A stretch of 64,000 nt of DNA from an uncultured Planctomycetales bacterium (GCA_964468745.1 CAYXVY010000140.1:5945-69944); one strand, 5' to 3'. Shown: positions 14,558 to 35,893, counted from the stretch's first letter. The notes: generated by a model from the sequence alone, not told the origin. A program made the numbers and translations.

Positions 14558-15367
14558 TTACATGTATCCGGAGGTGCGAAGACGCTCGAACGCGTCCTCC
14601 GATTCCTGGTCCTGTGCTCGGCCCGATCTCTCGCTCGTCTTCGTGCGCCGCAGCTCCTCGACGATCTCCGCGACGCTCGTGGCGGTGGACTCGATCATGC
14701 CGGTGCACGGCGCGCATCCGAGGCTGCGGTAGCGGCGTCCGTCCTTCGCGTAGTAGAGGTCGATGATCGGGATCGACTCGCGCTGGATGTACTCCCACAC
14801 GTTGAGTTCGGTCCAGTGGAGCAGCGGATGAATGCGTATGTGCGTGCCGGCCGGGAATTCGGTCTGGTACTGGTCCCAGAATTCCGGGGGCGCGTCGCCG
14901 AAGTTCCACGTGAGGTTCTTGTCGCGCGGCGAGAAGTAGCGCTCCTTCGCGCGCGTGCTCTCCTCGTCGCGGCGGATGCCGAGGAGCAGGCCGTGATACC
15001 CCTTGAGTTCGAGGACCTGCTTGAGGCCCTCCGTCTTGAGCGAGGAGCAGCAGACGACGCGGCCGAGGGTGTGGTTCATCCCGCCGGCGAGGGCGGCGAC
15101 GTTCTTGCCGACCACGAGGTCGAGCCCCAGCTCCTTCGCGACGCGGTCGCGGTACTCGATCATCGACGGGATTTTGTAGGTCGTGTCGACGTGGATGACG
15201 GGGAACGGGACGGCGCCGAAGAATGCCTTGCGGATGAGCCAGAGCAGGACGGTCGAATCCTTGCCGATCGACCAGAGGCACCCGAGGTTTTTCAGCTTCG
15301 CGCGCGCCTCGCGGATGATGTAGACGCTCTGCGCTTCGAGGGCGTCCAAGGGGTCGCGGTGAGCCAT
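14558..15367 (-). CDS. cysD: Sulfate adenylyltransferase subunit 2 (CysD; PAPS reductase-like ATP sulfurylase small subunit)
   Basis: ORF 14558..15367(-). [12 protein letters not shown] (PP-loop), LGIRRDEE, and overall CysD architecture. The ATG is preceded by TTGAGA-n17-TATAAT-n11. Confidence 0.9.
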
Positions 15368-15378
15368 AAGAGGGGCAG

Positions 15379-15384
15379 ATTATA
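15379..15384 (-). promoter_or_regulatory. -10 box (CCCCTATAATC) with TTGAGA -35 for cysD
   Basis: Minus-strand sequence reads TTGAGAccgcgcgcgcctgcccCTATAATctgcccctctt-ATG(15367). Confidence 0.55.
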
Positions 15385-15486
15385 GGGGCAGGCGCGCGCG
15401 GTCTCAATGGCTGCGCGCGCGTGGGACGTGTGAGGTTGGAGCTTTGAAGGGCGGAACGCGGAACGGTGACCCACCCTTCCAACGAC

Positions 15487-15918
15487 CTACTCGCCGCGCC
15501 ACGCGAGTTCGGTGATGCGATCCGCGTTCAGAATGCGCACGTCGAATCGATCGAACACGTCCGCCCTGCCCAGGAGCAGGGGCGCTTGATCCGTCTGCGC
15601 CCACCCGATGTCCGCGTAGAAGCGATGGCGCCCGATCTTGAACTCGGCTCGACGCTTCACAACCCAGATCCAGCCGCCGATGCCCCCGGCTCGGAATACC
15701 CTGTCATGGGATTCCTTGCGAAATCCGAGCAGCTCGCCCACGCTCTTTGGAACCAGCGTGAAGTCCGATCCGGAGTCTACGAGCATCACGTGGGGCAACC
15801 AGTTGTTGCGCTGCGAGCGGATAAACACCATCGCCGAGGGACGATGGATCGGTCCATAAAGCTCCGACGTCCCGATCATGTAGGGAAATCGGATGGGCGG
15901 CCGCGTTGCCGAGTTCAT
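15487..15918 (-). CDS. Retropepsin-like (clan AA) aspartic protease
   Basis: MLVDSGSDFTLVP contains the D-S/T-G active-site triad of retroviral-type aspartyl proteases. Length is ~143 aa. Confidence 0.6.
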   Translation of the reverse strand: MNSATRPPIRFPYMIGTSELYGPIHRPSAMVFIRSQRNNWLPHVMLVDSGSDFTLVPKSVGELLGFRKESHDRVFRAGGIGGWIWVVKRRAEFKIGRHRFYADIGWAQTDQAPLLLGRADVFDRFDVRILNADRITELAWRGE

Positions 15919-15924
15919 TTCCGC

Positions 15925-16137
15925 CTAGACGATCAGGATGTCCTCGGTCGGCACCTTCAACAGGACCGGCTGGCGGCGCGGATGCCGCTTACGCGCTCGC
16001 TCGACGACCGTGCGCGCATTCTTTCCGGACGCCGCAACGCGGCAGTCGACGATGGCGACGTACAACCCCCGATATCGACTGAGGTCCGTACGCGACAGCC
16101 ACTCCATCGTCGGGTCCATTTTTCTCGCGGCTCCCAT
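15925..16137 (-). CDS. Small protein partner of the retropepsin-like protease (DUF-type, ~70 aa)
   Basis: Track ORF 15925..16230(-). A TAGAAT -10 at 16145-16150 sits 7 nt upstream of the internal ATG at 16137 (MGAARKMD...GLYVAIVDCRVAASGKNARTVVERARKRHPRRQPVLLKVPTEDILIV). It is immediately upstream of, and co-oriented with, the protease gene. Confidence 0.4.
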   Translation of the reverse strand: MGAARKMDPTMEWLSRTDLSRYRGLYVAIVDCRVAASGKNARTVVERARKRHPRRQPVLLKVPTEDILIV

Positions 16138-16202
16138 CGGCGTTATTCTACTGCGCCGCTTTATGGCGGGGTAGCGGATTCCATTCGGGGTAAGGAACGG
16201 TG

Positions 16203-16872
16203 ATCCGCACCTTCCACCTTCCAACCTCAAACCTCAAACTCCTGCCCCAGTCCCCACCCCGCCTCCGCTCCGCGCCCCACGTCACTCCGCGCTTCCTTGG
16301 CGCGCTCCGCGTTTTCTTCGGGAAGTCCCGGGATGAAGTCACCCGCGGGGTATCCGTTCGCCGCAGACCTTCCGGATTCAACGCAGAGGTCGCTGAAGGA
16401 TTTGGATGGGGGCGAAGTTTTTCCTCCACCATTCCAATGTCCTCTCGGTTACCTCGGCTGCCTCGGTGTTGTCGGAGGGGTGGGGCAGCAGGCGGAAACC
16501 TCGTGGATGACACTGGGCAATCCGAGCAAACAGAGAAGCCCATCCATGCGAGGGCGTTCCCTGCTCCTCCCCTGCGCGCTCCGCGCTTTCTTCGGATAGT
16601 CCCGGGATGAAGTCGCACGCGGAGTATCAATCCGCCTCAGAATGACCCGCACCTTCCAACTTCCAACTTCCAACTTCAAACCTCAAACGCCTCCCCCACT
16701 CCCCATCCCGCCTCCGCTCCGCGCCCCCAGCCACTCTTGTCCTCCTCAGCGGGCTCCGCGTTTTCTTCGGATAGTCCCAGGATGAAGTCGCACGCGGGGT
16801 ATCCGTTCGCCTCAGAATGACCCACACCTTCCAACTTCCAACTTCCAACCTCAAACCTTAGACTCGTCCCCC
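16203..16872. repeat. Tandem array of a ~173-bp repeat (3 full or partial copies plus a fourth partial copy running into the wzm start codon); copy 2 is interrupted by a ~185-bp insert
   Basis: Unit landmarks ccgcaccttccaac(ttccaac)n ctcaaac...ccgcctccgctccgcgcccc...gcgctccgcgttttcttcggatagtcccgggatgaagtcgcacgcggggtatccgttcgcctcagaatgacc recur at ~16203, 16563 (tail only), 16647 and 16820. Each unit has internal heptad microrepeats TTCCAAC x2-3 and CTCAAAC x2. Confidence 0.85.
16859..16864 (+). promoter_or_regulatory. TAGACT -10-like box 8 nt upstream of the wzm ATG (leaderless-type)
   Basis: ccttAGACTcgtccccc-ATG(16873) with no SD. The same TAGACT-n8/9-start arrangement occurs at fcl (47400) and gmd (about 48417). 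Confidence 0.4.
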
Positions 16873-17628
16873 ATGCCCTCCTGGTTCGAGCTCCTGCGCG
16901 CGCTCGTCGCGAAGGACTTCAAGGTCCGCTACAAGAGCACGGCGCTGGGGTTCGTGTGGTCGATCGCGAACCCGGTCATGTTCGGCCTGACGTTCTACGT
17001 GGTCTTCGAGAACGTCTTCCGCGGCGGGCAGAAGAACTTCCTCGTCTTCCTGCTCGCGGGGATGTTCCCGTGGCAGTGGTTTGCGAGCACCGTGGGCGGC
17101 GCGCCCGGCACGTTCGTCGGCAACGCGGGCCTGATCAAGAAGGTCCGGTTCCCGTGGATGCTGCTCCCGACGGCGGCCCTTGTCAGCAACCTCCTGCACT
17201 TCCTGCTGGCGCTGGCGGTGGCCGTCCCGCTCCTCGGGATGAAGGGGATCTGGCCGACACCGGTCTGGCTGATCGGCATTCCGGCCCTGCTCCTCATCCA
17301 GGGGGCGCTGACACTGGGAGTCGCGCTGCTGATCGCATCGATCAACGTCATCTTCCGCGACCTCGAGTACATCACGCAGATCGTGCTGCAGTTGGTATTC
17401 TTCCTCACGCCGATCTTCTACTCGGCAACGGCGCTGCCGGAGGGGACGCGGTCGATCCTGCGCTGGAATCCGATGTGCTACGTGATTCCGGCGTGGCAGG
17501 AGCTGGTGCTGGAGGGCCGCATGCCCTGGCAGACGGCGGGGATCGGCGCGGCGATCGCGGCGGCGACGTTGCTGATCGGCTACGGAGTCTATCGACGGAT
17601 GGAGTGGCGGCTGGCGGAGTCGCTATAG
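16873..17628 (+). CDS. wzm: ABC-2 type polysaccharide export permease (Wzm/TagG/KpsM-like)
   Basis: 251 aa, 6 predicted TM segments, ABC-2 family signature region (FVWSIANPVMFGLTFYVVF...). Confidence 0.8.
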   Translation: MPSWFELLRALVAKDFKVRYKSTALGFVWSIANPVMFGLTFYVVFENVFRGGQKNFLVFLLAGMFPWQWFASTVGGAPGTFVGNAGLIKKVRFPWMLLPTAALVSNLLHFLLALAVAVPLLGMKGIWPTPVWLIGIPALLLIQGALTLGVALLIASINVIFRDLEYITQIVLQLVFFLTPIFYSATALPEGTRSILRWNPMCYVIPAWQELVLEGRMPWQTAGIGAAIAAATLLIGYGVYRRMEWRLAESL

Positions 17629-35640: not shown

Positions 35641-35845
35641 GGGGTTCCGGGCGCTGAGGTGTCCGCCGCCGTGCGGGCAACGCCCGCACGAGCGGCCACG
35701 CAGAAGCCGTTTCCGAAACGCCCAGCCCTTCTTCGGGAGCGTTTCGGAAACGGCTTCTGCGTGGCCGCGCCCGCGCTACGCGCGGGCCGGCGGACCCGAA
35801 AGAAGCTCTCCGCGCCCCAAGCGACTCCTGTCCTCCTCTGCGTTC
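35641..35845. repeat. Copy 2 of the ~200-bp palindromic structured repeat element; lies between the convergent GT2 and GT2-GT-C genes
   Basis: Perfect 22-bp inverted repeat (gcagaagccgtttccgaaacgc / gcgtttcggaaacggcttctgc, ~35700-35760), loop ccagcccttcttcggga. Arms ggggttccgggcgctgaggtgtccgccgccgtgcgggcaacgcccgcac and gcgcgggccggcggacccgaaagaagctctccgcgccccaagcgact match copy 1 (inverted). Confidence 0.75.
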
Positions 35846-35893
35846 TCTGCGGTTGTCCGGCAGGCGAGCGGAGATTTGATGCCCCGCGTGTCT

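Follow-up and report, generated by a model that had tools for sequence, protein, structure and literature searches.

A conserved DUF5678 and retropepsin-like protease gene pair in the genome of an uncultured Planctomycetales bacterium

A 64,000-nucleotide (nt) stretch of DNA from an uncultured Planctomycetales bacterium (GCA_964468745.1 CAYXVY010000140.1:5945-69944; the whole stretch is hereafter called the window) carries one copy of a two-gene module on its minus strand, in which a gene for a 70-amino-acid (aa) protein of Pfam family DUF5678 stands head to tail with, and directly upstream of, a gene for a 143-aa retropepsin-like (clan AA) aspartic protease. The two genes are inherited as a unit in bacteria and archaea, are fused into one polypeptide in several lineages, and by comparison of their sequences form what appears to be an obligate partnership. 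The pair is tentatively read here as a self-contained proteolysis module in which the DUF5678 protein gates the protease, as a restraint of the pro-segment or antitoxin kind; this reading is favoured among those considered, at a strength short of probable. The parts of the two genes are as follows, with the basis of each assignment in brackets.

15925..16137, minus strand: partner gene, 70 aa plus stop, Pfam DUF5678 (open reading frame [ORF] and Pfam PF18929 match)
15943..16083, minus strand: the DUF5678 domain itself, spanning residues 19-65 of the partner (Pfam match boundaries)
15487..15918, minus strand: gene for the 143-aa retropepsin-like (clan AA) aspartic protease (ORF, AlphaFold2 model, Foldseek, family profile)
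15763..15777, minus strand: catalytic motif D48-S49-G50-S51-D52, family consensus D-S-G-A-D (column counts, n=151; codons checked)
15673..15687, minus strand: flap-like glycine loop G78-G-I-G-G82 (conservation and model)
15559..15570, minus strand: G117-R118-A-D120, opening the C-terminal helix and corresponding to the retropepsin G-R-N/D (conservation and model)

Results and discussion

The protease gene

A sequence-only reading of the window had described a 143-aa clan AA protease of the D-S-G type, and the ORF at 15487-15918 bears this out, with V-D48-S49-G50-S-D52 set in the context M-L-V-D48-S-G-S-D, i.e., the hydrophobic-hydrophobic-D-S/T-G motif, and with a supporting fold. Motif columns were counted over the window protein and its 150 best family matches (151 sequences). 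The catalytic Asp, D48, on whose alignment the sequence-only reading had staked its assignment, aligned and was kept in 149/151; position 49 was Ser or Thr in 143, G50 was kept in 150, position 51 was Ala in 146 (Ser in the window) and D52 was kept in 140. Downstream, G79 of the flap loop was kept in 144 of the sequences, G117 in 150, R118 in 144 and D120 in 100. The order and spacing of these motifs equal those of the retroviral proteases, and GGIGG is the flap-tip sequence of the human immunodeficiency virus type 1 (HIV-1) enzyme. The near-invariance of D-S/T-G-A, the flap Gly and G-R argues for catalysis, and the protease is apparently catalytically competent.

The protease was modelled with AlphaFold2 from 82 homologues (predicted local distance difference test [pLDDT] 93.3, predicted template-modelling score [pTM] 0.85). 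Strands 74-79 and 82-95 of the model flank the flap loop, and a helix spans residues 118-124. In Foldseek comparison with the PDB, the best matches of the model were the proteases of simian immunodeficiency virus (SIV), HIV-2 and HIV-1 (E ~1e-6, template-modelling score ~0.7 target-normalised), together with Rickettsia APRc (5c9f); the family profile matched the retropepsin domains of Ddi1 in the PDB (7efy, E=3e-4; also 4z2z and 2i1a). On the predicted structure the retropepsin fold is confirmed and the protein is a genuine retropepsin-like enzyme.

Profile searches had been proposed as a check on the clan assignment, which held at the level of the family and the fold and fell short for the window protein alone: against Asp_protease_2 (PF13650) it scored 18 bits (E=0.005), below the cut-off of 24.3. 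The same model was matched at E ≤ 0.01 by 69/82 family members. Because its own Pfam score is below the cut-off, the assignment of the window protease to clan AA rests on family-level evidence and fold, and the protein is a divergent member of the clan, outside the exact Asp_protease_2 model. Searches of NCBIfam (E ≤ 1) and PHROGs with the window protease gave no match, and no signal peptide or membrane segment was seen in its sequence.

When 1.84 billion cluster representatives were searched exhaustively by profile, 1,998 relatives of the protease were returned at E ≤ 1e-3 and 444 at E ≤ 1e-10, so that the family counts ~2,000 relatives as clusters at 50% identity. Most are 130-140 aa long, and where members have an NCBI product name at all it is "retropepsin-like aspartic protease". 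Members with a name belong to Methanoperedens, Bathyarchaeia, Altiarchaeales, Deltaproteobacteria, Bacteroidia and cyanobacteria. Little-known single-domain non-viral clan AA peptidases of ~120-140 aa have been described previously in bacteria and archaea, among them TIGR02281 (DTGA), TIGR03698 (DTGF, AF_0612) and COG3577/COG5550 (PMC2642776). The window protease did not match TIGR02281 or TIGR03698 at E ≤ 1, and 8/82 and 6/82 of its relatives, respectively, matched them weakly (best E=2e-4). Since these two models barely match, the family is taken to be a separate subfamily that NCBIfam does not model; judged by sequence, this subfamily spans bacteria and archaea and is distinct from the NCBIfam clan AA models.

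The DUF5678 partner

The same reading had placed a ~70-aa ORF upstream of the protease on the same strand. Such an ORF is present on the minus strand, and the peptide quoted for it (GLYVAIVDCRVAASGKNARTVVERARKRHP...LLKVPTEDILIV) is exact. The longest form of this ORF is 101 aa (TTG start at 16230), and public gene calls on an identical sequence give a 60-aa protein (ATG 16107). ATG 16137, which yields 70 aa, is the best-supported start because the resulting N-terminal stretch, MGAARK-DPT-EW, is shared by homologues P0008 and P0009 and by the partners of loci L001, L002 and L007. The 70-aa protein matched Pfam PF18929 (DUF5678) at 47.1 bits (E=2e-12), above the gathering cut-off of 23.2 and over model positions 3-49 of 49. 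Chance ORFs are common at the G+C content of the window (65%); both ORFs of the pair are held to be real genes, not chance ORFs, because the partner reaches 47 bits against DUF5678 and the protease has homologues outside its own genome with E-values down to 1e-51.

The window partner is strongly basic (isoelectric point [pI] 10.9, net charge +8), as are the partners across the family (median pI 9.6); in most members the protease is close to neutral. The C-terminal tail of the partner is hydrophobic and conserved (E-D-I-L-I-V). Pfam reported DUF5678 alone on the partner and no recognised DNA-binding antitoxin fold (ribbon-helix-helix, helix-turn-helix, AbrB or Phd/YefM), and a search of solved structures with DUF5678 by sequence gave no match. 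The DUF5678 part of a natural fusion protein is predicted to run helix, strand, strand, helix, strand, an order that was not matched to any one of the four antitoxin folds.

Conservation of the pairing

In the closest relatives of the protease (55-58% identity) the gene just upstream encodes a DUF5678 protein of 70-74 aa, and the contigs have unrelated flanks: genes for MOSC and DUF1501 proteins in one, and for HEAT-repeat and transposase proteins in the other. In order to sample the family more widely, 80 metagenome loci were found with the protease profile, 76 of them with at least 200 nt of upstream sequence; for these scans alignment A3 replaced the broad alignment A2, which was too divergent. 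A DUF5678-like ORF lay immediately upstream on the same strand in 72/76. As the detector for this ORF was built from the same loci, 34 upstream partners were checked independently against Pfam, and 34/34 matched DUF5678. Independent gene calls recovered this pair in two contigs, one of an archaeal Methanoperedens and one from groundwater, amid housekeeping genes such as those for IF-2 and NDK, and the pair was also found in Candidatus Sungbacteria of the candidate phyla radiation. The small ORF thus recurs beside the protease in the metagenome loci, the close relatives, archaea, Candidatus Sungbacteria and, as described below, fused proteins; conservation next to the protease was the point on which the sequence-only reading had let its proposal of a module stand or fall.

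The exceptions (4/76) were L080, L081, L083 and L063. The first three gave an identical truncated protease match and appear to be one locus type (read in L080). In L080 (333-3280), ~2.4 kb with a TnpB-like ORF and an AbrB/PIN (VapBC-like) pair lies between the DUF5678 gene and an N-terminally truncated protease gene, and the module appears to have been disrupted by insertion of a mobile element. In L063 (271-1039) a solo protease homologue has no DUF5678 gene in the 270 nt upstream and is followed by an AbrB/SpoVT-type small ORF; since this protease stands alone, copies without a partner exist.

Pairwise identities of the partner and of the protease correlated at r=0.90 over 1,770 comparisons (maximum 0.24 in 500 label permutations), with a mean identity of 46% for the partner and 52% for the protease. 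The surroundings of the pair varied: the 73 ORFs flanking 51 non-redundant loci matched 86 Pfam families, none of them in more than 3 loci. Because no flanking family recurs in more than these few loci, the module is regarded as self-contained and as having no relation to its neighbours in the window, cysDN and wzm. Its site between the 3'-phosphoadenosine-5'-phosphosulfate (PAPS) operon and the repeat array before wzm had been given correctly from sequence; this location has no functional meaning, as the flanks differ in every relative. A functional link of the pair to the cysDN (PAPS) operon or to wzm/wzt was considered and ruled out on the same ground, and cysD has a promoter of its own.

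The literature search found nothing on the DUF5678-protease pair, the "DUF5678" mention that it found belonging to unrelated work, and the description of such modules as poorly characterised is upheld. Retropepsin-like proteases and DUF5678 are each already in databases, and the conserved two-gene, sometimes fused architecture was not found described. Within this large module, which is catalogued but unstudied, the copy in the window is nothing out of the ordinary.

Single-chain forms

Among the best 150 protease representatives, about 15 have lengths of 200-216 aa and a protease domain that begins at about residue 80. Of ten long representatives tested, four matched Pfam DUF5678 at the N-terminus (two above the cut-off) and seven exceeded the Asp_protease_2 cut-off. 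Precomputed annotations place DUF5678 and Asp_protease_2 in single proteins of Spirulina, Oscillatoriales, Tolypothrix and Bacteroidia, and an Acidobacteriota genome encodes a 197-aa DUF5678-protease fusion. Alignment of free DUF5678 proteins with the N-termini of the fusions by hhalign was colinear (probability 95%, E=3e-8). The fusions keep the gene order, with DUF5678 N-terminal and its C-terminal tail joined almost directly to the N-terminal strand of the protease. In the model of a natural fusion, junction residues 68-85 form the only long stretch of low confidence, as would be expected of a flexible or processed linker.

Recurrent fusion makes physical cooperation of DUF5678 and the protease likely. 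It speaks in particular for direct cooperation and against the possibility that the pairing is regulatory or incidental, i.e., that DUF5678 is a transcription factor of the operon without contact to the protease, or that the protease domain is a non-catalytic scaffold. The basic partner and the sub-cut-off Pfam score of the window protease are what this possibility would account for; the near-invariant D-S/T-G-A, flap Gly and G-R speak for catalysis, and it is regarded as highly improbable.

The fused proteins also bear on whether DUF5678 is a dedicated substrate, which the protease would mature or excise into an active small protein or peptide while having no other targets. Such Rosetta-stone fusions with a flexible junction fit this, as does the conserved hydrophobic tail of the partner; it is typical of retropepsins to cut themselves and adjoining proteins out of polyproteins. 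Autoprocessing is documented for APRc (PMC4140852). On the other side, the two proteins are already separate in most lineages, so that no excision is needed, and the whole partner is conserved as a folded domain, unlike a precursor made of leader plus core. A role as sole substrate is therefore considered quite improbable.

One fused form, P0242 (211 aa), is encoded directly after a gene that fuses N6/N4 methyltransferase with Mrr-type nuclease domains (L089-L092:3233-5636). Both genes are wedged between pyrC-like and carA/carB genes, an arrangement that was the same in 4/4 loci shown, of 24 contigs with this protein, and the neighbourhood has the look of a small defence-like islet set within a pyrimidine operon.

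Transcription and translation

Two further features concern the expression of the pair, both read from sequence.

15919..15924, minus strand: 6-nt spacer GCGGAA, from the partner TAG stop (15925-15927) to the protease ATG (15916-15918)
16145..16150, minus strand: candidate promoter hexamer TAGAAT, -10-like, 7 nt ahead of ATG 16137

In 50/72 related loci the two genes overlap, with the protease ATG 10 nt inside the 3' end of the partner gene, and the other loci have gaps of 3-13 nt; among the close relatives L001, L002 and L007 the gaps are 9-13 nt, with a double stop in L007. This overlapping or short-gap geometry suggests that the two genes are translationally coupled. The protease ATG of the window stands in frame after the TAG and 6 nt, a frame relation that is not conserved. 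Fusion by frameshift or read-through in the manner of gag-pro was ruled out, as every protease starts at a codon of its own, within the partner gene in the 50/72 overlapping loci, and a frameshift is unnecessary.

The hexamer TAGAAT had been proposed as a leaderless promoter of the small ORF. It is present and recurs in other loci; its -35 region is poor, and a consensus promoter scan did not report TAGAAT at 16150..16145, a miss attributed to that poor -35 region. TAGAAT stands 6-8 nt before the partner ATG in L001, in L005 (with TTGACC upstream) and in L078 (TTGACA-17-TAGAAT). In L002/L003 it stands 1 nt before the first of three consecutive ATGs and ~7 nt before the third. Counted together, these are four distinct bacterial loci besides the window, three of them with the hexamer at 6-8 nt. 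Archaeal-type loci have A/T-rich TATA-like boxes ~25-35 nt upstream instead. A leaderless bicistronic messenger RNA starting from TAGAAT is plausible because the hexamer recurs close upstream of the partner ATG in other loci.

Separately, the sequence GCTAC(C/A)CC occurs exactly 18 nt upstream of TAGAAT both in the window (16151-16176) and in L001 (upstream of 1973), with differing intervening sequence; a -35 element particular to the lineage and an operator that travels with the module are both possible readings. No match to Rfam RNA elements was found over 15200-17000.

Mobility and defence context

The small two-gene cassette in variable genomic contexts raises the possibility of a strict anti-phage, abortive-infection or toxin-antitoxin system, in which the protease would be a toxin that arrests growth once a labile partner is depleted. 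This proposal concerns biological role, and it overlaps in mechanism with gating by the partner. The only link to defence is a distant similarity to the PDC systems, phage-defence candidates in PADLOC that were found by "guilt by embedding" (10.1101/2024.01.29.577857). The B components of PDC-M52 and PDC-M08 are homologous retropepsin-like proteins of ~130-140 aa from multi-gene cassettes; counted at E ≤ 1e-3, 76/82 family members matched the PDC-M52 B component (best E=1.6e-10) and 25/82 that of PDC-M08, the window protease itself giving a weak match to a PDC B component (E=6e-4). None of the 34 DUF5678 partners matched a PDC A component, so that the family has one half of the A and B pair by which PDC-M52 and PDC-M08 are recognised, and the PDC candidates are themselves untested. 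The literature search found nothing joining retropepsin-like proteases with toxin-antitoxin systems, and nothing on PDC-M08.

Toxin-antitoxin-type genes adjoin the protease at L080 (AbrB/PIN) and L063 (AbrB/SpoVT-type ORF), and the methyltransferase-Mrr gene stands beside P0242. PADLOC analysis of the 73 flanking ORFs gave ~3 credible defence or toxin-antitoxin matches (AbiEii, PDC-M05A and PDC-S09), the rest being generic domains, and a defence-island context was dropped on this count. Many copies lie amid housekeeping genes, and the window has one copy. No match to the module was found in 72,556 plasmids (PLSDB), 50,697 phage records (INPHARED) or IMG/VR, which counts against an anti-phage or toxin-antitoxin role; a phage or plasmid origin was rejected on the same result. 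Of the traits of type II toxin-antitoxin systems, the small coupled operon with the smaller protein encoded first is present (6-nt gap in the window, overlaps in 50/72, pairing in 72/76), and frequent presence on plasmids and prophages is not seen, though chromosomal contexts vary. A strict anti-phage or toxin-antitoxin function is on balance judged unlikely. Of the three roles suggested from sequence, regulated proteolysis fits best, and the toxin-antitoxin and anti-phage roles have little contextual support (no copies in the plasmid, phage or viral-contig collections; ~3/73 flanking ORFs).

Comparison with characterised proteases

The retroviral proteases (HIV-1, HIV-2 and SIV; MEROPS A2) share with the window protease the fold, the motif order D-S/T-G-A, glycine flap and G-R-D/N, and one catalytic Asp per chain, which implies a dimer. 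In both cases a segment of 60-70 residues is encoded immediately N-terminal to the protease, covalently attached in the fused relatives of the module. In HIV this is the p6* transframe segment, which lies just N-terminal of the protease and restrains it until removed. Sequence identity to the retroviral enzymes is only ~20%, and the window protease has ~40 additional N-terminal residues and an additional C-terminal strand. It is a cellular protein that does not belong to a retroelement, and no copies were found in the viral collections. The DUF5678 partner is a folded conserved domain and usually a separate protein, and no sequence homology to p6* is claimed.

By sequence profile the closest solved relatives are Ddi1/Ddi2, in which an N-terminal accessory domain precedes the retropepsin domain as in the fusions. 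The accessory domains of Ddi1 are ubiquitin-like (UBL) and ubiquitin-associated (UBA), whereas DUF5678 has no detected similarity to them, and Ddi1 is a eukaryotic protein of the ubiquitin system; Pfam gave no match to UBL or UBA in either protein of the pair or in the fusions, and the similarity is limited to the retropepsin domain. Among bacterial enzymes, APRc (RC1339) of Rickettsia conorii is embedded in the outer membrane, processes autotransporters and autoprocesses (PMC4140852); the window protease differs in having no membrane segment or signal peptide and in having a dedicated DUF5678 partner. The RimB/Rlo proteases (DUF785-type) of Pseudomonas, of which the Rlo enzymes are secreted, have ATP-grasp and transglutaminase-like proteins as partners; they belong to a different family from the window protease, and their partners are not DUF5678.

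Proposed mode of action

Gating of the protease by DUF5678 is favoured on three grounds: the gene order, with the partner leading; the tight coupling of the two genes; and the resemblance of the fused forms to retroviral proteases with their N-terminal restraining segment. One short transcript would start at or near the partner ATG from the TAGAAT -10 box, without a leader, and the protease would be translated through coupling or re-initiation. Retropepsins are homodimers with one D-S-G Asp from each chain, and as the window protease has one D-S-G per chain it would likewise act as a homodimer, each chain supplying one Asp. In the third and least certain step DUF5678 would bind and gate the protease, most likely as a pro-segment-like or antitoxin-like restraint supplied in trans; contact or cleavage would take place at the partner tail E-D-I-L-I-V and the protease N-terminal strand next to it, and loss or cleavage of the partner would release the protease onto cytoplasmic targets. 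Such logic would resemble that of a type II toxin-antitoxin pair, by analogy and without membership of that class being established.

Several points weigh against gating. The correlated divergence of the two proteins is expected for any adjacent co-inherited genes and is weak evidence for binding. The model of the natural fusion (pLDDT 74, pTM 0.58) places the two domains unreliably relative to each other. Stable fusions are unusual for toxin-antitoxin pairs and suit a subunit that activates or targets the protease just as well. Antitoxins as a rule evolve more quickly than toxins, unlike the partner, whose conservation is about that of the protease (46% vs 52%). For DUF5678, neither a recognised DNA-binding antitoxin fold nor a solved structure similar in sequence was found. 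Toxicity of the protease to the cell is a hypothetical part of the scheme.

Several of these points bear on a second proposal, that DUF5678 is a positive adaptor or targeting subunit which brings substrates to the protease or brings the protease to a location (e.g., nucleic acid or ribosomes), and which the protease needs for activity. Such a role fits the stable fusions and the high conservation of the partner about as well as gating does. The stable N-terminal DUF5678 fusions occur in several lineages, the conservation of the partner is close to that of the enzyme, the partner is strongly basic beside a protease that is mostly near neutral, and the Ddi1 retropepsin domains, its closest solved relatives by sequence, come with N-terminal accessory domains. 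Set against this, no nucleic-acid-binding or ubiquitin-like fold was recognised in DUF5678, its helix-strand-strand-helix-strand order is no demonstrated beta-grasp, and the tightly coupled partner-first order is also the classic inhibitor-first layout. An adaptor is therefore a serious if somewhat unlikely alternative, and gating is retained as the working interpretation.

A bolder form of the gating interpretation would make the family a class of protease switch not recognised before, one that is cytoplasmic, gated by a partner and akin in behaviour to toxin-antitoxin or abortive-infection systems, with an aspartic protease as effector, and a prokaryotic counterpart, possibly a forerunner, of the p6*-protease and Ddi1 layouts. 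This is put forward as doubtful; if true, such a switch would span archaea, bacteria of the candidate phyla radiation, cyanobacteria and soil bacteria.

Neighbouring sequence

On the cysD side, the minus strand at 15407..15379 carries TTGAGA-17-TATAAT, a sigma-70-type promoter with 11/12 consensus positions that ends 12 nt before the cysD ATG at 15367. Because of this promoter the sulfate-activation operon is taken to have its own start with a very short leader, independent of the protease pair. On the other side, between the partner gene and wzm, ~3.8 copies of a ~175-nt unit occupy 16208-16878. Related copy pairs are 16208-16367/16657-16816 (85%), 16565-16698/16740-16873 (89%) and 16300-16367/16574-16641 (85%), and the last copy reaches the wzm ATG at 16873. 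A single further copy, weakly matching, lies at 35808-35854, Rfam gave no match to the unit, and the long ORFs across 16208-16878 look like repeat artefacts.

Conclusions

Few prokaryotic retropepsin-like proteases have been studied, namely APRc, the RimB/Rlo group, SpoIIGA and PerP. APRc and the Rlo enzymes are membrane-embedded or secreted, and the family described here is large and soluble, with ~2,000 clusters at 50% identity in both prokaryotic domains. Through its pairing with this family DUF5678 gains a concrete functional link to a protease, and the pair offers a simple two-protein system for how enzymes of the retropepsin type are restrained outside the retroviruses. Should the protease be toxic or protect against phage, aspartic proteolysis would be a new effector chemistry in toxin-antitoxin and defence biology.

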